Part shown: one piece after another, positions 93 to 21,862 of the stretch | Position numbering within the stretch: the stretch's first letter is position 1 | How the letters are laid out: the number at the start of each line of letters is the position of its first letter | Origin: Candidatus Hydrothermarchaeales archaeon | Lineage (GTDB): Archaea; Hydrothermarchaeota; Hydrothermarchaeia; Hydrothermarchaeales; SZUA-236 | Length of the DNA stretch: 23,336 bases | Direction: 5' to 3' | Assembly: GCA_046761145.1 (NCBI GenBank) | Contig: JBHIFP010000023.1 | Location: forward strand, 1 to 23,336 | The notes under the pieces: generated by a model | What the model saw: only the letters and a program-made list of their open reading frames with translations | Database searches by the model: none | Told to the model about the DNA's origin: nothing | Program-made: the position numbers and the translations under genes

Positions 93-467
93 CTACTCAG
101 CTGTTGCACTTTCGATGAGCTTTATTATCCTCCCAATATCCAAAGGTTTGTAGACCACGGCATATGCCCCTTCCCTCAGAGCTTCTGTTACGAGGGCATC
201 GTCGACGTAGGCCGTCATCATAATTACCGCCACCTCAGGGTATACTATCTTCTTGATCTCCCTAATAGTCTCTATGCCGTTTATTCCGGACATCTTTATA
301 TCCATGAGGATAACGTTGAAGAGCTCCCCCTTGAGTTTCTCAACCGCTTCAATTCCGCTCTCTGCAGTAGTTACATCGTATCCTCTCGCGCCCAGAATAT
401 CGGCCAAAGTCTCACAGGTGCCAACATCGTCGTCTACTACCAAGATACTAACTTTCCTTTCCTTCAT
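93..467 (-). CDS. Stand-alone CheY-like response regulator receiver domain protein
   Basis: 124 aa with a DDD acidic pocket near the N-terminus, the phospho-acceptor Asp in 'ILMDIKM', and a conserved Lys in 'VVYKP'. It overlaps the upstream histidine kinase gene by 20 nt on the same strand, giving a two-component operon. Confidence 0.85.
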   Translation of the reverse strand: MKERKVSILVVDDDVGTCETLADILGARGYDVTTAESGIEAVEKLKGELFNVILMDIKMSGINGIETIREIKKIVYPEVAVIMMTAYVDDALVTEALREGAYAVVYKPLDIGRIIKLIESATAE

Positions 468-2937
468 CTTCCTCTACTTCCATCACTGGTAGTTTTATAA
501 TGAAAGTTGCCCCCTTGTCTACAGCGCTCATCACATCGATGGTGCCCTCATGCCCGTCGATGATTTGTTTACATATCGCTAAACCCAAACCAATCCCTTT
601 TGCCTTGGTGGTAAAGAGCGGTTCGAAGATCTTCTCTATATTCTCTTTCGGAATCCCTTTGCCGGTGTCCTCAAACTCTATCTCTACGGAGTTGCCCTTA
701 CTTTTGGTTCTGATAATCAATTTACCACCTTCGGGCATCGCATGAACAGCGTTTGAAATCATATTCAAGAACACCCGCTGTAATTGCTCTCCGTCTGCCA
801 TCATCGAGGGTAAATCGGCCAGATAGGTTTCCACTTTGACATCGTCAGGTACCGATGCCCTGGCCAATGTATCCTTAAGGATCGCATTGATGTTGGCTTC
901 CCCAAAAGTGGGTTCTACCCCCCGTGAAAAGTCCAATAAGTCGGTGACGATTTTGTTGGAGGTATCTAGTTCCCTCTCTAGGATATTCAGGTGCTTCTTC
1001 ACCTTTTCATCTTTCCGGCCTAGGGTCATGTTGAGATAGTAGCTCACGTTCTTGATCACTCCAAGAGGATTTCTCAACTCGTGGCCAACACTCGCTGCCA
1101 GCTGCCCTATGGAAGCCAGCCTCTCTGACTTTACTAGCTGCTCTTGCGATTTTCTCAACTCCTCCATCTTACTTTCGACTTCAGCGCTGTAATATTTTAG
1201 AGACCGAATGGTCTCGTCCACTTCGGTAAACCCAACTCTGGCTATGAGCAAGGCCAGGAACATGCCTATCGCCCAGAGCAAGGTTACGTATTCATTTGTT
1301 GTGAAACTGAAGTTCTGCAAAAATCTGGTCTTGGAAAGGACCCCAAACCTCCCGACACCTTCGAGAAATATCGGGATAATGACCATAAATAGGAAGAGAC
1401 CGAAATAGCGCAGTTCCGGTATTCTAGTTGTCTGAACCGTTTTGTAGAGGGGATAAAGAACAAATATCGCCAAAAAGACGAAGACGTAAAGTTGTACCCT
1501 CCCCCACATAACTAGGAGCTTTACATTCCATGGCGCTTCGGGCGGCTCCCTCTTCCCTTGCAGAGTTAAGGTAGCATCGTCGATGCCTTGAAGCACGGCA
1601 TCGAGGTTGTCGATCGAGGGATTCCTCTTGGCATCTACAAATCTCTTTCTAATGACCATGTAAAGTTCTGGGTCTTCATCGGCGACTACACTTCTGATCG
1701 CATTGAAAATCGCCAAGGCATGATCGACCTCCGAAAGCGCCAATCCTGGTTCCCCGCGCCCAGTATATGCCCTAGCGGTCTGAAGATAATCGCGGATTAG
1801 CGCCAATTGGGTTATCTCTTCAGAACCAATCCCGCCAAATTCCAGGGTTCGCGCCAGCATGCTTATGCTGTGTCCTTGGCCATAACCCTCGTTGGCGGAT
1901 CCGTGAGAATCGTCATTCACAGCTATGCTGAAACGATAGGTCTTCGTGATATCGAACTGGACGTCGTCGTCGTGCCCGGTCTGCAATTTTCTCTTGAGTT
2001 CCAGATGCCACTTCCCGTCATAATAAACCCCTTTGGCGCTTATGTCTCTAGCACTTCCAGTCGGTTTTTCGGAGATGTATGCAGGAACTTTAAAGCCTAT
2101 CGGGATCTCCCTTCCATCGTTCAGTTTCGTCAGATTCAAAAATTCCACGGCCTCGTCCCTAAGGATCTCCTCCATCGTGATGTGTTTCGCATCTTCGCCC
2201 CTTGCGTCAAGTTCATAATATCTCGGCCCGATGAAATTACTCCTCTCATCGACAACCACATTCATTCTCTCCTCCACATACTCCCCCGATGTTTCATCTA
2301 GCTTGTGTGAATGCCATGTCTTCTCGATCATAGAGGTCCTAGAAAAACCAGGATATATCTTCTCCCCGATAACCACGGTATCGTCTAGGAATCCATCCCA
2401 CATATAGCCAGAGGGGTTGCCTTTCTCTGCCTTCCATTTCCAGTAATCGAGTCTTTCTTCTGGGGTATTGGTATGCATCCTATTTGCGTGGCAAGTAATG
2501 GCACATCCGGCTATATCGAAGCCCTCAACCGAGTCCCTTATGTTCCAGAAGATCGTGAACATATCCTCGGTATTTTTATTTGGGGGGTTCCAAGCAGTAC
2601 CATTATATCTCCAGAATAAAGCATCGCTTTGGGTTGGATCAGGCCATACGATGTACATATAGACATAGTCACGGTCATACAATGCCTTCATCTCCACATC
2701 CACATCCCCGACCTTTCCATCCACCACGGGGATGATCATTGTCTTTGTCTCATTCCACGAAGACTCTTTTGCCTGCCCATCTATGATTACCGCTTCGTTT
2801 GTTCTCACAGCGCTTAATAGCGTGCTATATTCTTCTTCCGCCGCTGTAAGCGTTCCATTTACCATAAGTGCACTAGCAATAAATGCCACTACCAAAATGA
2901 GCGCCGCTTTTTTTTGTTCTTTGTTCATCCAGCTCAC
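448..2937 (-). CDS. Sensor histidine kinase with a large N-terminal extracytoplasmic domain (~450 aa) and a multi-TM region
   Basis: 829 aa. N-terminal signal/TM 'AALILVVAFIASALMV'. C-terminal H-box 'ASVGHELRNPL' followed by an HATPase_c region (N-box 'FLNMISNAVHA', G-boxes 'DTGKGI', 'GLGLAI'). Four to five hydrophobic helices precede the HisKA domain. The start is probably GTG at 2937 (the track shows M), or ATG 9 nt downstream. Confidence 0.85.
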   Translation of the reverse strand: MSWMNKEQKKAALILVVAFIASALMVNGTLTAAEEEYSTLLSAVRTNEAVIIDGQAKESSWNETKTMIIPVVDGKVGDVDVEMKALYDRDYVYMYIVWPDPTQSDALFWRYNGTAWNPPNKNTEDMFTIFWNIRDSVEGFDIAGCAITCHANRMHTNTPEERLDYWKWKAEKGNPSGYMWDGFLDDTVVIGEKIYPGFSRTSMIEKTWHSHKLDETSGEYVEERMNVVVDERSNFIGPRYYELDARGEDAKHITMEEILRDEAVEFLNLTKLNDGREIPIGFKVPAYISEKPTGSARDISAKGVYYDGKWHLELKRKLQTGHDDDVQFDITKTYRFSIAVNDDSHGSANEGYGQGHSISMLARTLEFGGIGSEEITQLALIRDYLQTARAYTGRGEPGLALSEVDHALAIFNAIRSVVADEDPELYMVIRKRFVDAKRNPSIDNLDAVLQGIDDATLTLQGKREPPEAPWNVKLLVMWGRVQLYVFVFLAIFVLYPLYKTVQTTRIPELRYFGLFLFMVIIPIFLEGVGRFGVLSKTRFLQNFSFTTNEYVTLLWAIGMFLALLIARVGFTEVDETIRSLKYYSAEVESKMEELRKSQEQLVKSERLASIGQLAASVGHELRNPLGVIKNVSYYLNMTLGRKDEKVKKHLNILERELDTSNKIVTDLLDFSRGVEPTFGEANINAILKDTLARASVPDDVKVETYLADLPSMMADGEQLQRVFLNMISNAVHAMPEGGKLIIRTKSKGNSVEIEFEDTGKGIPKENIEKIFEPLFTTKAKGIGLGLAICKQIIDGHEGTIDVMSAVDKGATFIIKLPVMEVEEDEGKES

Positions 2938-3318
2938 TTCTCTCCATTTTCAGTATTTCATATCGACTTTTGGACCTCACAACCTATACCTATTACGCTT
3001 ATAAACTTGAGGCAAGGTGTTTACCAATTCCTCTTATTTTGGACCGCCTCCACACCATACATTTTTCATTTTTTCCTGCAAGTAAAGGCTACTATATGAT
3101 CCTTGATCTCTCCTCCAATCCTCTTTTCTCTCCATTGGTGAGATTATGTGTATAATATTCTTGTAGTTCAATCTATAAAATGATTTCTGCCATCTGAGGT
3201 ACGGTAGAGGACCCAGAAGTATGCGTTTTATGCTCTTTTGAAGTATGCCTATTCCTCATACTTCTTCGCGGCGCTCGTCAACTCGAGCTTAATTCCGGGG
3301 TTTATGTAATAAAACTTT

Positions 3319-3346
3319 TGCACCTTTTGTGGTGCACCGTGGTGCG
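3319..3346. promoter_or_regulatory. Palindromic/direct-repeat element in the TCS–stomatin intergenic region
   Basis: The sequence reads TGCACC-ttttgt-GGTGCACC. The 8-bp perfect palindrome GGTGCACC is embedded in a GTGGTGC direct repeat (3329-3335 and 3339-3345). Read directly from the sequence; function unknown. Confidence 0.3.
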
Positions 3347-3550
3347 AGATACAGCTGGAAAAAGGCAGAAATTGTTGTAGTGTTTTAACGCCACGCGATG
3401 CCATAGTGAGGGTAGTGGAGTTAATGCCGTTCTACTAGGACGCAAAACATTACAGTGTAAAATACAAAAATTGTAAATATAGATCAAAATTTTTTTTAGC
3501 CCAAGACAAAGTAACTTTTTAAGACAAGAACGAATTGCCCGGGTAGGACA

Positions 3551-3561
3551 AATAATATAAA
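3551..3561 (+). promoter_or_regulatory. Putative archaeal TATA box for the stomatin gene
   Basis: AT-rich 'aataatataaa' lies about 35-45 nt upstream of ATG 3596. A GGTGA Shine-Dalgarno sits 7 nt upstream of the ATG. Confidence 0.3.
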
Positions 3562-3595
3562 GGAGTACTGACAATTTTTCGTAAGGTGAAAATCA

Positions 3596-4366
3596 ATGCC
3601 GATAGGGACATATATCGCTATACTCGTAATTTTGGTAGTCTTGGTACTTCTCAAGATGTCGATATGGATATTTAAAGAGTACGAGCGAGGGGTTCTCTTC
3701 AGGTTGGGGAGGTTGAAAGGTGCAAGAGGGCCGGGCTTAGTCTTCATAATACCCTTCGTAGATAAGATCTTCAGGGTAGATCTGAGGGTAGTTACAGAAA
3801 ATGTCTCGGCCCAAGACGTTATCACCAAGGACAATGTGACGACCAAAGTCGATGCCGTTATATACTTCAATGTAGTAGATCCAGTGAACTCCAAAATGGA
3901 GGTGGAGGACTACTTGGCATCTACCACGCTGATATCTCAGACAACCCTGAGGGGCGTTATCGGACAGCATGAGCTGGACGAAGTGCTCGCGGAGAGGGAT
4001 AAGATCAATTATACTCTTCAAAGGATTATAGATTCGCACACGGAACCTTGGGGAGTGAAGGTATCAGCTGTCGAGGTCAAAGACGTCGAGCTTCCAGAAA
4101 CTATGAAGAGGGCCATGGCGAGGCAAGCCGAGGCTGAGAGGGAGAGAAGGGCAAAGGTGATCAACGCCCTAGGGGAATTCCAAGCGGCAGAAAAACTTGC
4201 GCAAGCGGCAGATATTATTGGGCCCCATCCAATGGCGCTCCAATTGAGATATCTGCAATCTCTAGTCGAGGTCTCATCAGAACAGAGCTCATCGGTTATA
4301 TTCCCGGTGCCGATAGACCTATTTAAACCGTTCTTGAAGGGTAGTAAGAGTAAGAAAAAGGAGTGA
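3596..4366 (+). CDS. SPFH/band-7 (stomatin/prohibitin-like) membrane protein
   Basis: 256 aa. N-terminal TM helix, then the typical band-7 core '[10 protein letters not shown]...[10 protein letters not shown]...', then a C-terminal coiled-coil '[14 protein letters not shown]'. Confidence 0.9.
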
Positions 4367-4375
4367 TGCCTCACT

Positions 4376-4392
4376 TCTTTGACTTTTTATTC
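4376..4392 (+). terminator. Oligo-T stretch downstream of stomatin (archaeal-type terminator candidate)
   Basis: 'cttctttgactttttatt' lies immediately after the TGA stop at 4364-4366. Further T-runs occur at ~4440-4475. Confidence 0.3.
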
Positions 4393-4544
4393 GATGTAAG
4401 TTGTCATGCCCCCTCCAATATAAGGTTGCTTTTACTGGTTCTTTTTTATCTTTGATCTATTCTGTTTTTTGGAGATGAATTGCCAACTTAAAGAGAGGGG
4501 ATTAAATGATTCTAAAAGACGATTCAGCGCAATACCCATGCCGA

Positions 4545-4560
4545 CTTAAATATATATAAG
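4545..4560 (+). promoter_or_regulatory. Putative TATA box/promoter of the cytochrome operon
   Basis: 'cttaaatatatataag' lies 56-70 nt upstream of ATG 4616. GGAG lies 8 nt upstream of the ATG. Confidence 0.3.
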
Positions 4561-4615
4561 AGTAAGGGCAAAAACTAAAATAGATTTTTCAAGATCTCGA
4601 AATGGAGCGAAATCC

Positions 4616-6130
4616 ATGCAGAAAGAGGAGAGAAAAAGAATCTCACTGCTGGTTGTAGCCGCGTTTGTGGTAGCAACGATTGCATTTGTAACATTAACGC
4701 CTGGATTCAGCTTCTTAGAACAATTTGTTAGAGTGGGAGAAGAAAAGCCAACCACCACTGAGGGGGCTACTTACGTCGGTTCAATTCGATGTAAGCAATG
4801 CCATGAAGGGACTTACGCCGGTTGGAAAACAACCTTGCATCCATATAAGATACAGAATATCGAGGATGCCCTTGTTGTCGGCGATTTCGAGAAGAACAAC
4901 AAGTTGGTCATCAAAAAGGGTGATGTCGAGTACACAACGACGATGTCAAAAAAGGAAGGGAAATACTACATAACCACTATTGGCCCGGATGGAAAGGAGC
5001 ACGCCTACGAAGTGCTCTATACCCTCGGTAGTGCCTGGAAGCAGAGATATCTCACGAAGTTCGACAATGGGGAATTCCATATACTCCCCGTTCAATGGAA
5101 TATTAGGGACCAGAAGTGGCAAGACTACCATGGGCTGGAGAAATATGATTATGATGATCCCAAAAATTATTGGAGCAGTAGGGGAAGGATCTGGCAGTAT
5201 AAATGTGCTGGTTGTCATACAACTGGTTTTCAAATAAACTACGATGAAGTCACGGATACCTATGCCTCAACTTGGATAGATAACGGAGTCGGATGTGAAG
5301 CTTGTCACGGACCGGGGAGCAACCACATATTGGCCGATATCCCTTACAAGAAGGAGACGATCGTCAATCCAGCGAAGATCCCACAAACAGATATAGGGGT
5401 CATGGTTTGTGGCTCATGCCACACCCGGGGTCATTCTACCCTCGATGCGAAATATGGATATCCCGTTGGCTACAAACCCGGCATGAACTTGGTACCTCTG
5501 TTCGATCCTGTTACGCGCGAAAAAGATACACCAAAACGCTTCTGGCCGAGTGGAGACTCCAGATCGCACCACCAACAGTATCTAGACTGGAAGACAAGCG
5601 AGCACGCGAGGGTAGGGATAGTATGCTGGGACTGCCACACCGTTCACTCTAAAGGTGAAGGCAAGTTCGAGACCAAGCTAGCAGGCACTGCGCTGTGCAA
5701 GGCCTGCCACGGTGAGCCGAGGGAGGTTCCAGGCCTCGCTGGGTTGAGCCACACCATCATGGACTTCGGGAACTGCGTCGGCTGCCACATGCCCCCGACT
5801 GCAAAGAGCATAAACCCAGGAGATATTAGGAGCCACAGGTTCAAGGTCATTAAACCAGAGGTCAGCATAAAACTCCTGCTTGACAAGGCTGCGAAGAAGG
5901 ATAAAACGGTCTTGGGCTTCTACGGCCTCGAGGCTAAAGATGTGGAAGGCCTTAACAAGACCGAAGTGGAAGAGCTGCTCAAGAACAAGGCCCGAGAAGC
6001 TATGTACGCAGGAAAAACCATGGACGACCTGCTCTGGAATGTGCAGCCCAACTCATGCAACGGATGCCACCACCACGTTTCACCTTGGATACTTCAAGAA
6101 TACCTCGAACCTCCGCGTCTGCATGAATAA
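4616..6130 (+). CDS. Octaheme c-type cytochrome, membrane-anchored or secreted (N-terminal TM/signal)
   Basis: 504 aa with eight canonical CxxCH motifs: CKQCH, CAGCH, CEACH, CGSCH, CWDCH, CKACH, CVGCH and CNGCH. N-terminal hydrophobic segment 'ISLLVVAAFVVATIAFVTL'. A haem-free ~130-aa insert lies between haem 1 and haem 2. Confidence 0.9.
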   Translation: MQKEERKRISLLVVAAFVVATIAFVTLTPGFSFLEQFVRVGEEKPTTTEGATYVGSIRCKQCHEGTYAGWKTTLHPYKIQNIEDALVVGDFEKNNKLVIKKGDVEYTTTMSKKEGKYYITTIGPDGKEHAYEVLYTLGSAWKQRYLTKFDNGEFHILPVQWNIRDQKWQDYHGLEKYDYDDPKNYWSSRGRIWQYKCAGCHTTGFQINYDEVTDTYASTWIDNGVGCEACHGPGSNHILADIPYKKETIVNPAKIPQTDIGVMVCGSCHTRGHSTLDAKYGYPVGYKPGMNLVPLFDPVTREKDTPKRFWPSGDSRSHHQQYLDWKTSEHARVGIVCWDCHTVHSKGEGKFETKLAGTALCKACHGEPREVPGLAGLSHTIMDFGNCVGCHMPPTAKSINPGDIRSHRFKVIKPEVSIKLLLDKAAKKDKTVLGFYGLEAKDVEGLNKTEVEELLKNKAREAMYAGKTMDDLLWNVQPNSCNGCHHHVSPWILQEYLEPPRLHE

Positions 6131-6157: not shown

Positions 6158-6721
6158 ATGAGAGAGATGGTAAAGGGAGGGGTTCTAATACTCCTCCTTT
6201 TAGGCTTCATATCCCTGAGCCATGTCGTGGAGGCTCAGGAAGTTCAGCAGAGGGACATGGAGAAATACTGGAGTGAGAGGTGGAAGAGCCCCCTACCCCC
6301 TGAGGCTAAGACGAAGTATAAGCTTGCATATACCCTTGAATATGCGAATAAGACGTACCAAGAATCTCCTCACGGAAAGGCAGCTGCTCTTGGAAAAGAG
6401 GGAGTTCCGACTTGTACGGATTGTCACGGCATGGTGGACTGGATGTATTTCCTTCCACAGAGCGATCCAAATTCACCCATCAATCCTAAGAACAGACCTG
6501 ATATATGCGCGAGGGAGGATTGTCATGGTGTTAAATTGCCCAATGCAGGCAAGGGATCGATGCATGGAAGCGATATATACTCTCTAGGCCCAACCTCCGT
6601 GAATGGGCTGATAAACTTCCTCTACAAAATACTTATCTCCGCAGTGATCGGATTCTTCGTAGTCTTTGAGATTTTGGACTTCACCAGAAAGTTCGGTAAG
6701 AGCAAGAGGGGGGGCGTGTGA
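6158..6721 (+). CDS. Small membrane-anchored dihaem(?) cytochrome c
   Basis: 187 aa. Signal peptide 'GGVLILLLLGFISLSHVVEA'. One canonical CTDCH plus a CAREDCH (CX4CH, cytochrome c3-like spacing). C-terminal TM anchor 'LISAVIGFFVVFEIL'. It sits 27 nt after the octaheme gene and ends 1 nt before the cytochrome b start. Confidence 0.7.
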   Translation: MREMVKGGVLILLLLGFISLSHVVEAQEVQQRDMEKYWSERWKSPLPPEAKTKYKLAYTLEYANKTYQESPHGKAAALGKEGVPTCTDCHGMVDWMYFLPQSDPNSPINPKNRPDICAREDCHGVKLPNAGKGSMHGSDIYSLGPTSVNGLINFLYKILISAVIGFFVVFEILDFTRKFGKSKRGGV

Positions 6722-6722
6722 A

Positions 6723-7397
6723 ATGGCCGAAGAGGAATTCTTAAGATTTACCGTCTTTCAGAGGATACAACACGTCCTTTGGGCCCTATCGTTTTTCGTA
6801 TTGGCATTGACGGGATTCCCACTGAAATACGCCCATACCTCATGGGCACGGGGTATAGTTGACTTGCTTGGGGGTCCGGATAAGAGAGGTTTATATCATC
6901 GAATTGCTGCAGTAGTATTCATCGGTACAGGTCTTATACACGTGATATACTATATCCTGATCGACAGAGGAAAGAAGGACATAATGCCGAAGAGGAAAGA
7001 TTTCGACGATGCTATACAACACATCAAATACAATTTAAGGATGACCGACGAAATGCCAAAAATGGGGAGGTACACCTGGGAGCAGAAGTTCGATTACTGG
7101 ACCGGAGCTGTTGGTTCCCTCATAGTAGTTGTGACGGGGTTTATGATGTGGTTCACATTCGATATGGTGTTGAAGGTACTGCCGCTGCAGTTCGTCAATT
7201 ATGCCCGGCTGATACATGGGTGGGAAGCAATTCTGGCATTTTCTTTCGTGATAGTGGTACATTTATACGCGACGATTTTGAATCCGGATGTATTTCCAAT
7301 GGCAAAGCAATGGATAACTGGAACACTGAGTAAAGAACAAATGGAACATGAGCACCCGTTGGAGCTGGAAGAATTGACAGAGGGGGAAGAGGCATAG
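6723..7397 (+). CDS. Dihaem cytochrome b membrane subunit (FdnI/HydC/Ni-hydrogenase cytochrome b-like, PF01292-type)
   Basis: Candidate His haem ligands in predicted TM helices: 'QHVLWAL', 'YHRIAAVVFIGTGLIHVIYY', 'HGWEAILAFSFVIVVHLY'. The ATG at 6723 (MAEEEF) lies directly after the TGA of the upstream gene. The track ORF extends to 6666, but the upstream extension overlaps the preceding CDS. Confidence 0.75.
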   Translation: MAEEEFLRFTVFQRIQHVLWALSFFVLALTGFPLKYAHTSWARGIVDLLGGPDKRGLYHRIAAVVFIGTGLIHVIYYILIDRGKKDIMPKRKDFDDAIQHIKYNLRMTDEMPKMGRYTWEQKFDYWTGAVGSLIVVVTGFMMWFTFDMVLKVLPLQFVNYARLIHGWEAILAFSFVIVVHLYATILNPDVFPMAKQWITGTLSKEQMEHEHPLELEELTEGEEA

Positions 7398-8256: not shown

Positions 8257-8724
8257 TTAAGATATCTTATGTATAAGTTCCATCGTCCCCAACTTAAAGT
8301 ATCCCAACTTGGGTATTATGAAGATAACCCTGCCATTGATCCATTCCCCCTTGACAGGAGTGGATATCCCCGAACGCGGGTCCTGATCGGTGTAAAAATT
8401 ATGATCCCCTTTTGTGTAAAAAAGTAAGGACCCTTCATAATCTTCGATCTTTACAACGCGGTGCACTATTGGGATGCCTTTTGCTGGATTCTGATAAACG
8501 ATTATATCCCCCCTCAGTAGTTGATCGGGATCGATGCCTCTGACGATGACCAAATCCCCCTTGTAGAATGTGGGGGCCATGCTATTCGAAACAACTGCCA
8601 TGACGGGCTTTTGGGTACCCAAAGCATAACCCAGGCCTTGATTCATAAATACCGCCAAGATCAGCCCTATCGCTATATACTTTATCGTGCTTATGATCTC
8701 TTCCTTCCACTTCATCGTCGACAC
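8257..8724 (-). CDS. Signal peptidase I, archaeal/Sec11 type (copy A)
   Basis: N-terminal TM anchor. Catalytic Ser motif 'VSNSMAPT'. Conserved 'GDLVIV...GDIIVY' and 'TKGDHN' boxes. A paralog lies at 12469..12930. Confidence 0.85.
   Translation of the reverse strand: MSTMKWKEEIISTIKYIAIGLILAVFMNQGLGYALGTQKPVMAVVSNSMAPTFYKGDLVIVRGIDPDQLLRGDIIVYQNPAKGIPIVHRVVKIEDYEGSLLFYTKGDHNFYTDQDPRSGISTPVKGEWINGRVIFIIPKLGYFKLGTMELIHKIS
8498..8604. repeat. 107-nt tract identical to 12713..12819 (internal segment of the two SPase I paralogs)
   Basis: Both loci carry 'acgattatatcccccctcagtagttgatcgggatcgatgcctctgacgatgaccaaatcccccttgtagaatgtgggggccatgctattcgaaacaactgccatgac'. Flanking sequence is only ~65-70% identical. 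Confidence 0.8.
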
Positions 8725-12468: not shown

Positions 12469-12930
12469 TTACAGGGTTCCTTTAATTGAGGTCGAGAATT
12501 CGGTCAGAATCACCTTAAACCAACCGAGCTTGGGTATAATTAGGATAACCCTCCCTTTCACGAGGTCTTCTCTGACTGGCGGCGAGATCCCGAACTCGGG
12601 GTCTGTCCTCAAATTGTGATCCCCTTTTGTTACAAAATACCGAAGCCCTTCGCGTTCCTCGATATCTACGATGCGATGCACGATGGGGATATTCTTATAA
12701 GGATTATAATATACGATTATATCCCCCCTCAGTAGTTGATCGGGATCGATGCCTCTGACGATGACCAAATCCCCCTTGTAGAATGTGGGGGCCATGCTAT
12801 TCGAAACAACTGCCATGACCGGTTTCTCTGTACCCAGGGCATAGCCCAATCCATGATTCATGATGGATGCCAAGATCAGCCCCAACAGTATATACTTCCC
12901 CGTCTCAACAATCTCTTTCTTTACATCCAT
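12469..12930 (-). CDS. Signal peptidase I, archaeal/Sec11 type (copy B)
   Basis: 153 aa paralog of 8257..8724 with the same motifs: 'VSNSMAPT', 'GDLVIV', 'TKGDHN'. Confidence 0.85.
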   Translation of the reverse strand: MDVKKEIVETGKYILLGLILASIMNHGLGYALGTEKPVMAVVSNSMAPTFYKGDLVIVRGIDPDQLLRGDIIVYYNPYKNIPIVHRIVDIEEREGLRYFVTKGDHNLRTDPEFGISPPVREDLVKGRVILIIPKLGWFKVILTEFSTSIKGTL

Positions 12931-16248: not shown

Positions 16249-16785
16249 ATGAGCATAAAAGAGATCAGCAAAAGTTTGAGGGAGAACAAGTCTGGATTCC
16301 TTGTAACCTTCCTCGCTTTGCTGTTATTCTGGCTCTTTGTGTCATCGACCTTCGATATCCAACACATCATGCTTGGCGCCTTCTGCGCCCTCCTTGTCGC
16401 CGTCTTCTCCCACGAAATGCTCATTCGGAAAGGCGAGAGGGCCTTGCCTAAACCCAAAGTGATTATCCTGTATCTATTTTATATCGGATATCTGATAACC
16501 GAGATAATAAAGTCCAATATACAGGTTGCACGTATAGTCCTCGACCCAAAGATGCCCATATCTCCGGGGATAGTGAAATTCAAGACGGGCCTCAAGAAAG
16601 ACCTCATAAAAGTCACTTTGGCAAACTCGATTACACTGACCCCTGGTACTTTTACTATAGATATCATCGGCGATACATATTACGTCCACGCGATAACGAC
16701 CCATCGGCCCGAAGAATACGCCAGAGGCATTGAGGAGTGGCCCATGTTGAGGAGGTTGAGGGAGATAGAGAATGTTAGCGGGTGA
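16249..16785 (+). CDS. mrpE: Mrp/Mnh-type cation:proton antiporter subunit E (MbhA-like)
   Basis: 178 aa. 'NSITLTPGT' motif. First gene of a translationally coupled cluster. Confidence 0.75.
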   Translation: MSIKEISKSLRENKSGFLVTFLALLLFWLFVSSTFDIQHIMLGAFCALLVAVFSHEMLIRKGERALPKPKVIILYLFYIGYLITEIIKSNIQVARIVLDPKMPISPGIVKFKTGLKKDLIKVTLANSITLTPGTFTIDIIGDTYYVHAITTHRPEEYARGIEEWPMLRRLREIENVSG

Positions 16786-17063
16786 GCAAAACGATCGAGC
16801 CAAATATCTTCATTTATATGGGTGTGATATTGGGGTTCACGAGCTTCTTATGTCTCTACAGAGGGGTTAAAGGGCCATCTGCACCGGATAGGGTAATCGC
16901 GATAAATGTGATAGGGACAAAGACCATGGTAATTTTGGTTTTGTTTGCTTACATCTATGAGCATCCTTTATACATCGACGTGGCCATCGTCTATGCCCTG
17001 ATCAACTTCTTAGCCACCCTAACGATTTCGAAATATTTGGAGAAGGGGGAGTTGGGCGAATGA
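16782..17063 (+). CDS. mrpF: Mrp/Mnh antiporter subunit F (MbhB-like)
   Basis: 93 aa. 'KGPSAPDRVIAINVIG' (the GPx..DR..A.D signature). ATGA overlap with mrpE. Confidence 0.8.
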   Translation: MSKTIEPNIFIYMGVILGFTSFLCLYRGVKGPSAPDRVIAINVIGTKTMVILVLFAYIYEHPLYIDVAIVYALINFLATLTISKYLEKGELGE

Positions 17064-17419
17064 TCGATACGATAGTAATGCTATTCTTTATCATAGGACT
17101 GTTCTTCTTCATCGTTGGAACGATCGGATTGTTGAGGCTGCCCGATGTCTATACGAGGATGCACGCCACGACAAAGTGCGACACCTTGGGAGCGATGACG
17201 ATATTGACAGGACTTGCCGTATATTCTGTTGTATTGGGCGCGCCAGGAAGTTTGTTCATTTCGGGAAAAATGATTTTGATAGCAACCTTTATCTTTGTCG
17301 CCAATCCCACTTCGGCACATGCCATAGCCAAGGCCGCATACCTTAGCGGTGTTAAGTTATGGGAAGGAAGTGTATTTGATATGTACGGGAAAGATGCAAA
17401 AAAAACGTATGCGAGGTGA
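17060..17419 (+). CDS. mrpG: Mrp/Mnh antiporter subunit G (MbhC-like)
   Basis: 119 aa. 'GLLRLPDVYTRMHATTKCDTLG' signature. Overlapping start. Confidence 0.8.
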   Translation: MIDTIVMLFFIIGLFFFIVGTIGLLRLPDVYTRMHATTKCDTLGAMTILTGLAVYSVVLGAPGSLFISGKMILIATFIFVANPTSAHAIAKAAYLSGVKLWEGSVFDMYGKDAKKTYAR

Positions 17420-17670
17420 AAAGAATGATATGGCTCTTGGATCTGATCCTTCTTCTATTTTTGGTGGTATGTTCCCTAGAGGTGATCCGTACAAAGGATC
17501 TACTGAGCGCCGTTGTGATCTTCTCTGCATATAGCCTAGTCATGTCGATCATATGGCAGCAATTAGATGCCCCGGACATAGCCATAACCGAAGCAGCTGT
17601 CGGAGCCGGGATTACTACGATGTTGTTCATAGCGACCATAAGTAAGACGACGAGGTGGGAAGAAGAATGA
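17416..17670 (+). CDS. MnhB-N-terminal-like small membrane subunit (DUF4040; MbhD-like)
   Basis: 84 aa. 'AVVIFSAYSLVMSIIWQQLDAPDIAITEAAVGAGITT'. Confidence 0.65.
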   Translation: MKRMIWLLDLILLLFLVVCSLEVIRTKDLLSAVVIFSAYSLVMSIIWQQLDAPDIAITEAAVGAGITTMLFIATISKTTRWEEE

Positions 17671-17975
17671 GGTTAAAGGGGTCGTTGGCCAGACGGTTTT
17701 TGGCCCTTCTTTTTGTGATAATAATCGGATATGCCCTAGTGACGATCGTGACAGAGATGCCCCCCTTTGGGGATCCAAACAGTCCTGGATATACCCATGT
17801 GGTGCCGAGGTACATAACCGAGAATGTTGAGGAAACTGGAGCCTTGAACATCGTTGCGAGTATAATAGTCGATTATAGGGCCTATGACACCCTCGGTGAG
17901 ACGACAGTGCTCTATACCGCGGCCCTCGGCATCATCTCCGTTCTCGCTTTAGGAGGAGAGCACGAGGAGGAATGA
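17667..17975 (+). CDS. MnhB-related small membrane subunit (MbhE-like)
   Basis: Start placed at the ATGA overlap (MRLKGS). 'NIVASIIVDYRAYDTLGETTVLYTAALGI'. Confidence 0.6.
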   Translation: MRLKGSLARRFLALLFVIIIGYALVTIVTEMPPFGDPNSPGYTHVVPRYITENVEETGALNIVASIIVDYRAYDTLGETTVLYTAALGIISVLALGGEHEEE

Positions 17976-17976
17976 G

Positions 17977-18402
17977 ATGGAAGATGTAATCGTTAGGACC
18001 GTAACAAGGATGATGACCCCCCTCATACAGATGTTCGGTTTGTACATCATATTTCACGGCCATTTAACCCCTGGTGGCGGGTTTCAGGGCGGTGCGGTCA
18101 TAGGTGGCAGCATGATACTGATCGCCGTGGTCTTCGGCTTGAAAGAGGGCAATAGGAGGGCGCCCCATGATCTCTCTGTGATACTCGAAAGTTTCGCCTT
18201 GGGTTATGCTATCATAGGTTTATTAGGCATTCTTTTAGGAGGAAATTTCTTGGCAAATAAGATCGTTGGGATACCTGTTGGGACGCCCGGAGCTTTGTTG
18301 AGCGGAGGTATAATCCTCGGAATCAACATAGTAATCGGGTTCAAGGTCGCTAGTACTGGGAAAACTCTATTTTACACTATAGTGGAGGAACGGCCAGAAT
18401 GA
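17977..18402 (+). CDS. mrpB: Mrp/Mnh antiporter subunit B (MbhF-like)
   Basis: 141 aa. 'GHLTPGGGFQGG' MnhB signature. Confidence 0.75.
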   Translation: MEDVIVRTVTRMMTPLIQMFGLYIIFHGHLTPGGGFQGGAVIGGSMILIAVVFGLKEGNRRAPHDLSVILESFALGYAIIGLLGILLGGNFLANKIVGIPVGTPGALLSGGIILGINIVIGFKVASTGKTLFYTIVEERPE

Positions 18403-18779
18403 TGATACCCGCGGGTTTTTATCAGTACAATTACCTGATCTCTTCAACCCTATTTTTGATAGGTCTGTACACGATGATCACCAGGAAGAACCTGATAAAG
18501 AAGATCATAGGGCTGAATATCATGGACACCTCGATATTCCTATTCTTCATATCTATGGGGAGCGTCAAAGGAGGGAGGGCCCCGATCGTTATTCCTGGCG
18601 TCGAGAATGTGGTGTATGTGAATCCACTGCCCCAAGCCCTCATACTCACTGCCATCGTCGTTGCTGTCAGCGTCACCGCGTTTGCACTCGGCCTCACGAT
18701 AAAATTGTACGAGAAGTATGGTACGCTGAACGGAGATAAGATCAGAGAGATCAGGATAAGAGGACCTGGAGAGAGTTGA
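18399..18779 (+). CDS. mrpC: Mrp/Mnh antiporter subunit C (NuoK-like; MbhG-like)
   Basis: 126 aa. Three TM helices. NuoK-like 'TRKNLIKKIIGLNIMDTSIFLFFI'. Confidence 0.75.
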   Translation: MMIPAGFYQYNYLISSTLFLIGLYTMITRKNLIKKIIGLNIMDTSIFLFFISMGSVKGGRAPIVIPGVENVVYVNPLPQALILTAIVVAVSVTAFALGLTIKLYEKYGTLNGDKIREIRIRGPGES

Positions 18780-18780
18780 G

Positions 18781-20274
18781 ATGGGCATCTCCCAACATTT
18801 TCCTGTCTTGATAGTAGTAACACCGTTGATAGCTTCCTATATTGTCCCGATGTTTGCCAGATGGAGAAAGGAGTGGTGTGTGCCTACAACTATATCCGCT
18901 ACTCTCCTGTCTTTCTTTATGGCTATCTCGATGGCATTCACCGTGCAAAAGGCAGGCCCAATACACTACTATCTTGGAAACTGGGAACCTCCGTGGGGGA
19001 TAGAGGTTGCGGTAGATTATCTGGGCGCCTTCGTGGCATTGATGGTTACTGGCATTGGTCTACTTATAGTCATATTCTCAGTTAGATATGCCGAGGAGAT
19101 GATAGATGAGAGAAATATATATTTATATTATGCCTTGGTCTTACTCCTCTTGGCGGGTCTCACTGGGATGGTCGTCACGGGCGACATATTCAACCTATTC
19201 GTCTTCCTGGAGATCGCCTCTCTGTCTTCCTATGCATTGGTTCCGATTGCTGGCAAGAAGGGAACGGAAGGGCAGTTCGAATCGAGCTTCAGATACCTCT
19301 ACATGGGGGCAATGGCCTCGAGCTTTGTGCTACTCGGTATTGGTTTAACATATATGACCACCGGGACCTTGAATATGGCCGATCTTGCAGTAAGGATAAA
19401 AGAGGTTGCAATGCCCAATTATCCTAGGGTGTTATTGGCCGGTTTGGGTTTTTTGGTCGTCGGCTTCAGTCTGAAAACTGCACTATTCCCGTTGCACATA
19501 TGGGTGCCGGATGCATATACCCATGCGCCAGCGCCTGTAAACGCATTATGCTCAGGAATAACTTTAGAGGTCGGCGCTTATGTCCTTATAAGGCTCTTTT
19601 ATTCCATCTTCGGTATGCCCGTTGTAAATGGCACAGCGCTCGATGAGATACTGCCACTGCTTGCCGGTATAGCAATCATCTTCGGTTCTCTATTTGCGAT
19701 AGCCCAGAACGATGTCTTCCGCATGTTGGCGTACTCAACTATAAGCCAGATGGGCTATATAGTTCTTGGTGCAACATTATTCTCTCATAATGGTTTGATA
19801 GGGGGGATATACCATCTAATCAATCATTCGGTTATGAAGGGCACGATGTTCCTGGCGGTTGGTGCTGTGGTCTATAAGACGGGGATCAGGGATATACCCG
19901 AATTTGGTGGTCTGGGCAAGAAGATGCCCCTGACCATGGGCGCATTTTCAATATCCGCCCTCGGGATGGTCGGGATACCTCCCCTTGCGGGCTTTATGAG
20001 CAAATTTTTCCTGGTCCTCGGAAGTCTGCAATCAAATATGGCTTTCGTATTCGTCATACTTGCGAGTAGTTTGCTGAATGCGGTCTATTTCATGAGGGTG
20101 ATAAACCACATATATTTCGGAGTCCCCGAAGATTTGGTGATCAAGAGGGATGAAGCGCCTTTGAGCATGTTGATACCGACGGTTATCATGGGGCTTGGGG
20201 TTATAGCCCTGGGCCTATTTCCCGGTGCTCCACTCTCCTTGATAAAGCCCGCGGTCAAGTTGCTAGGGCTGTAG
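18781..20274 (+). CDS. mrpD: Mrp antiporter subunit D / NuoN-L-M family proton-translocating subunit (MbhH-like)
   Basis: 497 aa and ~14 TM helices. 'WVPDAYTHAPAPVNALCSG' and 'ISQMGYI' signatures. Confidence 0.85.
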   Translation: MGISQHFPVLIVVTPLIASYIVPMFARWRKEWCVPTTISATLLSFFMAISMAFTVQKAGPIHYYLGNWEPPWGIEVAVDYLGAFVALMVTGIGLLIVIFSVRYAEEMIDERNIYLYYALVLLLLAGLTGMVVTGDIFNLFVFLEIASLSSYALVPIAGKKGTEGQFESSFRYLYMGAMASSFVLLGIGLTYMTTGTLNMADLAVRIKEVAMPNYPRVLLAGLGFLVVGFSLKTALFPLHIWVPDAYTHAPAPVNALCSGITLEVGAYVLIRLFYSIFGMPVVNGTALDEILPLLAGIAIIFGSLFAIAQNDVFRMLAYSTISQMGYIVLGATLFSHNGLIGGIYHLINHSVMKGTMFLAVGAVVYKTGIRDIPEFGGLGKKMPLTMGAFSISALGMVGIPPLAGFMSKFFLVLGSLQSNMAFVFVILASSLLNAVYFMRVINHIYFGVPEDLVIKRDEAPLSMLIPTVIMGLGVIALGLFPGAPLSLIKPAVKLLGL

Positions 20275-20371
20275 CTAGGAAATATTTATTGTGAAAGATT
20301 AGAAACATTTATGTAGCACGCGTAAATAAAGAATACTTGCAATCTATCATGATAAATCATTTAGATGTGGT

Positions 20372-21862
20372 ATGATGGTTGGCGAGACTGCGACCTCCAT
20401 ATTGTTGGTTTTGGCGGTTTGGATACCGGCTATTTTGTCCGTGCCCATCTATCTAGCTGGGAGGTACTCCGAAGATCTGAGGAACTATCTCGCAGTAGGG
20501 AGTACTGTGGCTTCATTTTTGTTATCCTTGGCTATGATCCCCGCTGTGTTGGGCGGTACCGTTCTGGAATTTGTCCTGCTTCCTTCTACGGTCTCCCCCA
20601 TACCAATCGAGTATATGGCAGATCCCCTCGGCCTGCTCATGGCTATAATGTCCTCATTTGCTTGGATGCTTGCTACGATCTATTCCATCGCCTACATGGA
20701 GCCAGAACATGCGAAGGATAGATATTATGGGTTCTTGATCTTGACTTTCAGCTCGATGATGGGCGTCGTATTGGCGAAGAATCTATTTACATTGTATATA
20801 TGCTTTGAAATCCTCGCGATAGCGTCTTGGGTTCTCGTTATTCACGAAGAGACGGATGAGGCAATGGAGGCCGGGAAAAAGTATCTATTCATGGGCATCG
20901 GCGGCGGTCTCTTCCTCTTGTTCGCCGTGGTTATGACGTTCATAGAATCGAATGTACTGGATATAAGCAGGGTCGGTATCTTGCAATATAATGGCTGGAT
21001 AACACAGGCGATATTTTACAGTTACATAATCGGTTTTGGTACGAAGGCAGGGATGTTCCCCATGCATGTATGGTTGCCAGATGCGCATCCTATCGCGCCA
21101 TCCCCTTGTAGCGCACTACTTTCTGGGGTGATGATCAAGGCAGGTGCATATGGCATAATCAGGACGATCTACAACATATTTGGCGTTCCCCTCATATTCA
21201 GGATGAATGCCCATATCGTGATAGCGGGCTTCGCCGGCATGGCCATAATCCTGGGCTCGGCCGTCGCGATATCGCAGAAGTTGCTGAAGAGGATGTTGGC
21301 CTACTCATCTATAAGCCAGATGGGCTATATAATCCTGGGTTCTATGTTCCTCACTACAAGGGGTTTGGAGGGCGGCATTTTGCACCTATTCAACCACATC
21401 CTGATGAAGGATGCATTGTTCCTCGTCGCTGGAGCGCTCATCTTCAAGACCGGCAAAAAGAACATAGATGACTTTGCCGGGATTGGGAGGAAGATGCCCC
21501 TCTCAATGCTCGTCTTTACGGTAGCTGCCCTATCGATGATAGGTCTCCCGCCATTTGCCGGATTTATAAGCAAGTGGTATCTCCTCTTGGGCGCCTTGGA
21601 CGCTGGTACTATAGCACTTACATTTTATGTGGTCGTCCTCCTCGCGAGCAGCCTGATGAATGCGGTATATTACATGCCGATAATAATTAAGGCCTATTTT
21701 GGCGTGCATGAGGGCGAGCACGAGGAAGTAGAGACGGACGAAGCTCCTCTAGTCATGTTGATCCCCATGCTTATTCTGGCCCTCGGCGTCCTGTTATTTG
21801 GGATATTCCCGAACATACCCCTTGCCCTGATAAGGCCTGCCGCCAAGTTGATGGGGATGTAG
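20372..21862 (+). CDS. Second NuoL/M/N-family antiporter-like subunit (MrpA-core or MbxH'-like)
   Basis: 496 aa. 'WLPDAHPIAPSPCSALLSG' and 'ISQMGYI'. No MrpB-like C-terminal domain. Preceded by the only real intergenic gap (97 nt) in the cluster. Confidence 0.8.
   Translation: MMVGETATSILLVLAVWIPAILSVPIYLAGRYSEDLRNYLAVGSTVASFLLSLAMIPAVLGGTVLEFVLLPSTVSPIPIEYMADPLGLLMAIMSSFAWMLATIYSIAYMEPEHAKDRYYGFLILTFSSMMGVVLAKNLFTLYICFEILAIASWVLVIHEETDEAMEAGKKYLFMGIGGGLFLLFAVVMTFIESNVLDISRVGILQYNGWITQAIFYSYIIGFGTKAGMFPMHVWLPDAHPIAPSPCSALLSGVMIKAGAYGIIRTIYNIFGVPLIFRMNAHIVIAGFAGMAIILGSAVAISQKLLKRMLAYSSISQMGYIILGSMFLTTRGLEGGILHLFNHILMKDALFLVAGALIFKTGKKNIDDFAGIGRKMPLSMLVFTVAALSMIGLPPFAGFISKWYLLLGALDAGTIALTFYVVVLLASSLMNAVYYMPIIIKAYFGVHEGEHEEVETDEAPLVMLIPMLILALGVLLFGIFPNIPLALIRPAAKLMGM

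Follow-up and report, generated by a model that had tools for sequence, protein, structure and literature searches.

Extracytoplasmic sensor domains with a covalently bound heme c have been described for the Geobacter chemoreceptors GSU0582 and GSU0935, which are PAS-like swapped dimers with a CXXCH motif, joined to methyl-accepting chemotaxis protein outputs (PMC3460858). Cache domains with covalent heme c, designated sCache_heme (DUF3365/Tll0287), were added recently, and these occur both as stand-alone redox-like forms and fused to signaling domains (bioRxiv 2026, PMC12889525). Another heme-binding scaffold is that of the EB_dh family, whose characterized members hold one heme b via Met and Lys (PMC8840923, PMC8387239). 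Among these are EbdC of ethylbenzene dehydrogenase (2IVF_C) and NxrC of the Kuenenia nitrite oxidoreductase (7B04_C), which are gamma subunits of the type II dimethyl sulfoxide (DMSO)-reductase family, carry their heme b non-covalently and dock on Mo/FeS subunits. Here we describe a sensor histidine kinase (HK) encoded by contig JBHIFP010000023.1 of Candidatus Hydrothermarchaeales archaeon (23,336 nucleotides, all of which were analyzed and are referred to as the window). Its extracytoplasmic domain is a member of the EB_dh/DOMON family, and we consider that the protein is a histidine kinase with a c-type-heme DOMON sensor of redox state or of a ligand, with a probability of roughly 0.6; this reading takes a WNIRD pentapeptide shared with a neighboring octaheme cytochrome to be coincidental. 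To our knowledge, extracytoplasmic heme sensors are few, namely the PAS-like domains of Geobacter and, recently, the Cache-heme domains, no archaeal example and no example built on a DOMON scaffold being known.

The kinase gene, the regions of its product and the partner receiver are laid out as follows.

Positions 448-2937, minus strand: sensor HK gene (open reading frame list and translation; Pfam EB_dh, HisKA and HATPase_c).
Positions 2848-2907, minus strand: signal-anchor or first transmembrane (TM) segment, TM1, residues 11-30, exporting the sensor domain (hydropathy maximum KD 2.28, preceded by a Lys-rich N-terminus).
Positions 1900-2751, minus strand: EB_dh/DOMON beta-sandwich sensor domain, residues 63-346 by Pfam, with the fold at approximately 35-366 (PF09459; AlphaFold2 (AF2) and Foldseek; profile search).
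Positions 1528-1824, minus strand: extracytoplasmic bundle of helices, residues 372-470, interposed between membrane and beta-sandwich (AF2 helices, model residues 343-450, pLDDT 80-94).
Positions 1228-1506, minus strand: three-TM transmission module, residues 478-570, with the motifs PIxLEGxGR and FSFTT[SN]E (hydropathy; conservation).
Positions 922-1107, minus strand: HisKA dimerization and phosphoacceptor domain with H-box His619 (PF00512, E=3e-11; 'SVGHELRNPL').
Positions 484-795, minus strand: HATPase_c catalytic domain (PF02518, E=5.7e-27).
Positions 93-467, minus strand: stand-alone CheY-like receiver, 124 residues, acceptor Asp56 (PF00072, E=1.9e-26).

Read from its GTG codon, the HK open reading frame encodes 829 residues with four TM segments; the gene probably starts at the ATG at 2928 (826 residues), because the orthologues measure 826 residues and begin at the methionine of MNKEQ. 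Pfam assigns residues 63-346 to EB_dh, 611-672 to HisKA, and 715-818 to HATPase_c, and a hydropathy scan places TM segments at 11-30, 478-499, 511-531, and 551-570. In this four-TM layout, residues 31-477 face the exterior and the kinase core the cytoplasm, so that a preliminary description of this DNA, in which a histidine kinase with an extracytoplasmic domain of ~450 residues was proposed, is borne out by both Pfam and topology (residues ~31-477). The N-terminal signal-anchor and the 1+3 arrangement of TM segments provide for export of the sensor domain, as expected of a c-type apoprotein. The protein and its neighbor also have all the elements of a HisKA-class two-component system: a HisKA domain with H-box His619, a HATPase_c domain, and an adjacent cognate receiver with Asp56. 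The start of the receiver gene overlaps the stop of the kinase gene by 20 nucleotides on the same strand, which agrees with the coupling to a CheY-like protein claimed earlier, and the overlap is identical in the orthologous locus L003. Because the receiver of L003 sits in a cluster with more PAS kinases and receivers, the phosphorelay may plausibly be branched.

Between the beta-sandwich and the kinase core lies a region in which a Pfam scan of residues 372-600 matched no family. Its helical bundle (372-470) is kept in all sensor homologues, and the three-TM module is conserved in archaeal and bacterial homologues irrespective of the output domain. Taken as one segment (residues 372-570, window positions 1228-1824, with the motifs PIxLEGxGR and LQNFSFTT[SN]E), bundle and three-TM module are a constant companion of the sensor-type EB_dh domain, and may constitute an undescribed transmembrane signaling module.

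The assignment of the sensor domain to the EB_dh/DOMON family, one of the candidates named in the preliminary description, comes from three kinds of comparison. The match to PF09459 has an E-value of 1.5e-26 and, at 94.4 bits, exceeds the cut-off of 33.3. An AF2 model of residues 30-480, built cofactor-free from 19 homologues (mean pLDDT 73.8), is a beta-sandwich followed by four long helices, and its Foldseek search against the PDB returned NxrC (E=9.6e-11), EbdC (E=3.2e-8), and CBM9 modules (about 1e-6), with no multiheme cytochrome among the matches. A profile of 58 relatives searched against the PDB matched NxrC at E=4.4e-19 and a xylanase CBM9 at E=1.6e-6. Pfam matched neither PAS nor Cache models to the sensor region, the fold being DOMON. 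The model TIGR03477 (DMSO_red_II_gam) scored 19.3 bits against a cut-off of 169.85, NCBIfam gave no specific model otherwise, and genes for molybdopterin alpha or FeS beta subunits are present neither in the window nor in the orthologous loci. Iyer and colleagues are said to have concluded in 2007 that the DOMON superfamily binds heme or sugars. The InterPro entry IPR019020 bears the title 'Cytochrome c-552/DMSO reductase-like, haem-binding domain', and CDD contains a model named 'CBM9_like_HisKa'; both make the architecture less novel.

The known fold that the sensor domain matches is thus a heme-binding one, rather than the known non-heme ligand-binding fold that, according to the preliminary description, would speak against a heme sensor. 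CBM9 modules and other DOMON domains, such as the cytochrome domain of cellobiose dehydrogenase, share the superfamily fold, but CBM9 lacks both heme and a Cys-His motif, and the cellobiose dehydrogenase domain holds heme b by Met/His ligation. The Foldseek matches to CBM9 modules (E=3e-6 to 1e-5), the weak Pfam score for CBM9_1 and the profile match to the xylanase module could be taken to mean that the sensor is a cofactor-free, CBM9-like binder of carbohydrate or metal, in which the Cys-His motif would be a Cu, Zn, or Fe site. We consider this highly improbable: CBM9_1, at 14 bits, stays short of its cut-off of 23.4, the likeness is one of fold only, heme-binding members match best, the conserved residues fall on heme-ligand positions and not on the sugar site, and the genomic contexts of the relatives are respiratory or cytochrome-associated.

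Three elements of the sensor domain define the predicted heme site.

Positions 2488-2505, minus strand: CX3CH motif, C145-A-I-T-C149-H150, predicted site of covalent heme attachment and proximal ligand (conservation).
Positions 2428-2448, minus strand: EB_dh signature D164-x-W166-x-W168-K-A, after the heme-ligand loop (aligns with NxrC 163-169 and EbdC 116-122).
Positions 1867-1881, minus strand: Gly-rich loop G-Q-G-H356-S with the His predicted to be the distal heme ligand (H356 invariant in 19 sensor homologues).

Residues 127-155 of the kinase, 'FTIFWNIRDSVEGFDIAGCAITCHANRMH', hold both WNIRD (131-135) and C145-x3-C149-H150, and C145 and C149 are the sole cysteines of the 450-residue extracytoplasmic domain. 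An exhaustive HMMER search found 895 representative clusters of relatives (E<=1e-3), of which the best 147 were inspected. In the profile-aligned domain instances of these best 147 of 895 relatives, the first Cys is kept in 162/165, the second in 165/166, and the His in 164/166 (~98%). GCxxxCH is kept by each of the 17 sensor homologues with coverage of this region, which are archaeal as well as bacterial and include those of Desulfuromonas and Magnetoovum; the cysteines, whose loss in orthologues would have counted against the heme proposal of the preliminary description, are conserved. The motif is invariant in 58 stand-alone relatives, and multi-domain proteins have one CX3CH per EB_dh repeat. 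Rare variants, GxxxCH and PxxxCH, hold a single Cys and the His, and the few relatives that lack CX3CH have only a Met at the position of M154, thereby resembling the heme-b state. In the literature, CX3CH is accepted as a heme-c motif, albeit a rarer one, and it has been included in counts of heme-c motifs for Hydrothermarchaeota genomes.

The position of the motif relative to the pocket of the heme-b proteins points in the same direction. The kinase sensor shares with EbdC and NxrC the beta-sandwich, the EB_dh family and the D-x-W-x-W-K-A signature (D in 165/168 homologous domain instances, the two Trp in 168/168 and 151/168), the kinase's 'DYWKWKA' having its counterparts in 'VNLWHWKAD' of NxrC and 'VNAWYWKAN' of EbdC; it also shares a heme pocket made from a mid-domain loop and a C-terminal loop. 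In the family profile, an alignment of sequence profiles that is uncertain by ~2 residues, Met108 of EbdC and Met155 of NxrC align to T156 of the kinase (H150+6, M154+2), which puts CX3CH 4-6 residues away from the site of the Met ligand. Lys305 of NxrC, a heme-b ligand (PMC8387239), aligns to the column of H356, which in the 58 stand-alone relatives is a conserved His and occasionally a Lys. The Met/Lys ligation of the heme-b gamma subunits is therefore not reproduced, as His356 occupies the Lys column and H150 stands six residues before the aligned Met. Both predicted ligand loops, that of CX3CH and that of H356 (model residues 316-328), have pLDDT <50 in the cofactor-free model. In contrast to EbdC and NxrC, in which the corresponding segment is 25-30 residues shorter, the segment of the kinase sensor bears CX3CH; in addition, Mo-enzyme genes are missing nearby and the domain serves as a kinase input.

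The sensor beta-sandwich very probably carries a covalently bound heme, and the simplest reading is that an ancestral heme-b pocket was converted to a covalent heme-c site with His/His ligation. The prediction of a c-type heme attached via CX3CH, already made in the preliminary description, appears well supported by the conservation of the motif in ~165 instances, its position in the heme pocket, and the genomic contexts of the relatives, among them ties to ccm genes and multiheme proteins.

Domain identities, topology, motif conservation, the pocket alignment and the modular reuse of the sensor, all obtained by computation, are the observations on which we build the following scheme. The extracytoplasmic ~450 residues comprise an EB_dh/DOMON beta-sandwich and then a helical bundle; the beta-sandwich would represent a large, apparently uncharacterized CX3CH subfamily in which the Met/Lys-ligated heme b of EbdC and NxrC has been swapped for a covalent c-type heme. 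The thioether bonds would be made by C145 and C149, with H150 as the proximal ligand and H356, carried by a flexible Gly-rich loop, as the distal one. The heme may then report the extracytoplasmic redox state, either by electron exchange with cytochromes of the periplasm or the cell surface, or with the acceptors of these cytochromes, or through a small ligand that displaces the distal His. The change would be relayed via the helical bundle and the three-TM module to the cytoplasmic HisKA/HATPase core, which would autophosphorylate on His619; from there the phosphate would go to Asp56 of the CheY-like protein co-transcribed with the kinase.

Several points weigh against this scheme. AF2 cannot place heme, and its confidence is lowest precisely at CX3CH. 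The pocket equivalence is a sequence-profile alignment with the margin given above, and no CX3CH EB_dh member is found among the solved structures in the PDB searched. Neither ccm nor ccs genes were found, whether in the window or within the 10 kb flanking the orthologues. Among distant homologues, the neighborhoods diverge to oxidative-stress genes, hemerythrin, or cytochromes, and no target can be inferred from the receiver, which lacks an output domain. Finally, Met154, conserved in 107/162 instances (66%), could remain a ligand of a non-covalent heme b.

This last point may be developed into an explanation in its own right, in which heme b is held non-covalently by Met154 and His356 and the CX3C cysteines form a structural disulfide or a thiol redox switch beside the heme. 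Met154 aligns, to within 2 residues, with the Met that ligates heme in EbdC and NxrC, a Met persists at this position in relatives devoid of CX3CH, and every solved member of the family binds heme b. However, the strict C-x3-C-H pattern with its His in 164/166 instances is that of heme c and not of a disulfide, the single-Cys variants still hold 'CH', and one member adjoins a ccm operon while others are fused to multiheme c-type cytochromes. Moreover, H150 and M154, being separated by one helical turn and facing the same side, cannot both serve as axial ligands. We regard heme b at this site as distinctly unlikely.

The nearest database relatives of the kinase are from metagenome-assembled genomes (MAGs) of Candidatus Hydrothermarchaeales, and several Hydrothermarchaeota-related MAGs have two or three paralogues. 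The unit of EB_dh, helical region and three TM segments is joined to HisKA/HATPase, to PAS-HK, GAF-HK, or HisKA_3-HK, to GGDEF, to DUF835, or to a coiled coil only, and such shuffling among outputs is typical of an input module. As separate observations, sensor-type EB_dh genes also occur as tandem or nearby paralogues, for example at 2011-6077 of locus L001 (648 and 623 residues) and at 10001-15888 of L010 (two genes, 3 kb apart), and some of the paralogues end in a coiled coil with no recognizable output domain.

CX3CH-EB_dh domains outside of sensors are found in the company of c-type cytochromes and their maturation genes. In L008 (2852-9032), a complete ccmE-F-A-B-C operon is followed immediately, and in the same orientation, by a stand-alone CX3CH-EB_dh gene, and another stand-alone gene lies inside an operon for multiheme, molybdopterin, FeS, NrfD, and cytochrome c proteins. 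L029 (1093-6334) has genes for a Rieske protein and a split cytochrome b, then, at the place expected of a c1-type subunit, a hexaheme-EB_dh(CX3CH) fusion, and then another EB_dh gene; the arrangement resembles a bc-type complex in which a multiheme-DOMON protein plays the part of c1. L029 derives from the same metagenome as one of the sensor homologues, P0005. In L027 (2785-7301), from a high-GC Methanobacteriota MAG, a gene for an 854-residue, C-terminally anchored surface protein with two CX3CH-EB_dh repeats stands directly upstream of an octaheme homologue that is 28% identical to the cytochrome of the window. Several further members are fused to cytochromes with 6-9 CXXCH motifs. The contexts in L008, in the multiheme operon, in L029, and in L027 are consistent with an extracytoplasmic heme-c electron-transfer domain.

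The neighbors of two bacterial sensor homologues bear on the nature of the signal. In L004 (4193-12289), a Desulfuromonas EB_dh-GGDEF homologue is flanked by the catalase-peroxidase KatG, three rubrerythrins, and a desulfoferrodoxin, and the Magnetoovum homologue adjoins a PAS kinase and a hemerythrin; both neighborhoods hint at a redox or oxidant signal without defining it. They would also suit a heme-c sensor of a gas or other small ligand (NO, O2, CO, sulfide), rather than of redox potential, in which the ligand displaces the distal His356. The location of this His in a Gly-rich loop of low model confidence would favor such a function, as would the finding that signaling-fused heme-c Cache domains behave as NO sensors, the stand-alone ones appearing redox-related (PMC12889525). 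On the other hand, stand-alone and fused relatives of the domain lie in electron-transfer operons, and the predicted bis-His six-coordination favors electron transfer. This possibility, which we rate as unlikely, is a variant of the heme-c sensor proposed here and not an exclusive alternative to it.

Among described systems, the kinase sensor functionally most resembles, by analogy, the PAS-like heme-c sensors of Geobacter and the heme-c Cache domains. GSU0582 and GSU0935 and the present kinase have in common an extracytoplasmic sensor with one covalent c-type heme (predicted in the present case), fusion to transmembrane signaling, and cytochrome-rich hosts; they differ in that the present sensor combines a DOMON/EB_dh fold, CX3CH, an archaeal host, and an HK output. 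With sCache_heme, the CX3CH-EB_dh domain shares the principle of a widespread extracytoplasmic scaffold to which a heme-c motif element has been added, and the occurrence of both stand-alone redox-like and signaling-fused forms. However, sCache_heme is a Cache domain with CXXCH that has been tested experimentally, and the domain described here is a DOMON domain with a predicted heme at CX3CH, whose parent EB_dh scaffold already bound heme b.

In the preliminary description, the heme proposal had been coupled to a resemblance between the sensor and the neighboring octaheme cytochrome.

Positions 2533-2547, minus strand: WNIRD of the kinase, residues 131-135, in a beta-strand (family consensus [WF]-[ND]-I-x-x; R134 and D135 variable).
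Positions 4616-6130, plus strand: octaheme c-type cytochrome, 504 residues, eight CXXCH motifs, WNIRD at 5096-5110.

The motif strings quoted for the two proteins are both present where they had been placed, the cytochrome having 'HILPVQWNIRDQKW' with WNIRD at residues 161-165. It had been proposed from this that the sensor is homologous to, and was recruited from, the WNIRD region of the octaheme cytochrome family, and the presence of WNIRD and a nearby Trp in both proteins, the distance of 1.7 kb between the genes, and the preservation of this arrangement in two related genomes speak for the idea. However, a single BLASTP comparison of the two proteins is not significant (E=0.22-0.34), and hhalign of the two family alignments gives a probability of 0.75% with the two WNIRDs unpaired. 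A common 5-mer arises in 20% of shuffling trials, and six further proteins of the window, none related to the kinase, each have a single 5-mer in common with it. The consensus of 32 cytochrome homologues at this place reads LPxQW[NI][VIL]x[TD]xxW, in which the Trp alone is invariant, and in the kinase family it is F[WF]NIxDS with a variable Arg; W-N-I/V is thus only semi-conserved in both families, and R and D vary in both. Furthermore, the fold of the sensor is DOMON, with no cytochrome match by Foldseek. BLASTP, hhalign, motif variability, the shuffling test, and the DOMON fold all speak against homology between sensor and cytochrome, whose probability we put at practically nil, and the WNIRD resemblance, as judged from these comparisons, is a chance match.

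The arguments that had accompanied the homology proposal fare no better. The use of different codons, cited as evidence against a recent duplication, amounts to 2/15 nucleotides between the two WNIRD stretches and is weak evidence. The region of the cytochrome regarded as its heme-free N-terminal domain is preceded by heme motif 1, CKQCH, at residue 59. The Trp-rich stretch considered to be shared with the cytochrome is, in the kinase, the 'DYWKWKA' signature of the EB_dh family, found likewise in NxrC and EbdC, and no cytochrome feature.

The distance of ~1.7 kb from the start of the kinase gene to that of the cytochrome is confirmed, and with its octaheme and diheme genes the host encodes c-type cytochromes nearby. 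The cytochrome gene continues into a short operon.

Positions 6158-7397, plus strand: remainder of the cytochrome operon, encoding a diheme protein and an FdnI-like cytochrome b.

The order of receiver and kinase, Band7, octaheme, diheme, and cytochrome b genes is kept in two other Hydrothermarchaeales genomes (L003/L009 and L010). In a tblastn survey of co-occurrence over 28 loci, the octaheme operon was found solely in two loci, those with kinase orthologues of 90-92% identity, and at this identity the synteny may merely be inherited. The functional link between kinase and cytochrome operon claimed earlier is limited to these close relatives, where inherited synteny would look the same, and we do not take it as evidence of regulation. 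The operon is absent from the loci of more distant sensor homologues; multiheme open reading frames do lie within 10 kb of distant sensor homologues in L019, L022, and L024, without the operon of the window.

Searches of the literature on EB_dh/DOMON sensors and CX3CH, and of the PDB, turned up neither a publication nor a solved structure of an EB_dh domain with CX3CH or of a sensor built on EB_dh. It is possible, and we advance this tentatively, that CX3CH-EB_dh proteins form an unrecognized, widespread class of covalent-heme DOMON proteins, numbering several hundred or more clusters at 50% identity across archaea and bacteria, which act as extracytoplasmic electron carriers and, when combined with the helical and three-TM region, as direct sensors of extracellular electron-transfer chains. 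The carriers would be c1-like partners of Rieske/cytochrome b proteins, partners of octaheme cytochromes, and multi-repeat surface proteins. In the present kinase, the adjacent complex of octaheme, diheme, and cytochrome b proteins, or else its acceptor, would poise the heme, with the kinase adjusting respiration or behavior accordingly. If CX3CH-EB_dh domains do bind heme c, they would add a third fold to the extracytoplasmic heme sensors and would exemplify the turning of a heme-b pocket into a site for covalent heme c. They would also offer a handle on extracellular redox perception by uncultivated, cytochrome-rich Hydrothermarchaeota and by metal- and sulfate-reducing bacteria, and hundreds of proteins annotated as 'ethylbenzene dehydrogenase-related' or hypothetical would be probable c-type cytochromes missed by CXXCH-based counts.

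Some details of the locus may be added. The divergent intergenic region between the kinase and the Band7/SPFH gene (window positions 2938-3595) is unusually long, at ~660 nucleotides compared with ~340 in the orthologous L003, and a TTTATAA box lies ~75 nucleotides upstream of the ATG of the kinase. Rfam and tRNA scans of the window, this intergenic region included, returned nothing. In the cytochrome operon, the membrane-anchored diheme protein (6158-6721) has a CXXCH motif, CTDCH, and a CX4CH motif, 'CAREDCH', and gave no Pfam or NCBIfam match; its CX4CH is a second non-canonical heme motif in the neighborhood. The FdnI-like cytochrome b is likely encoded at 6723-7397: the open reading frame as listed (6666-7397) has a TTG start that overlaps the preceding gene, and the 224-residue orthologue suggests a start at the ATG at 6723, right after the stop of the diheme gene.

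Elsewhere in the window, the housekeeping genes are archaeal (TFS, Csl4, Dph2, MfnA, signal peptidases). Two paralogous signal-peptidase-like genes on the minus strand (8257-8724 and 12469-12930) have 46 pentapeptides in common and are separated by ~4 kb in which DUF99, Csl4, and Dph2 genes are located. A cluster resembling an Mrp/Mnh-type multisubunit cation/proton antiporter (16249-21862) occupies the window's right third and includes two large MnhD/NuoN-like subunits of 497 and 496 residues.

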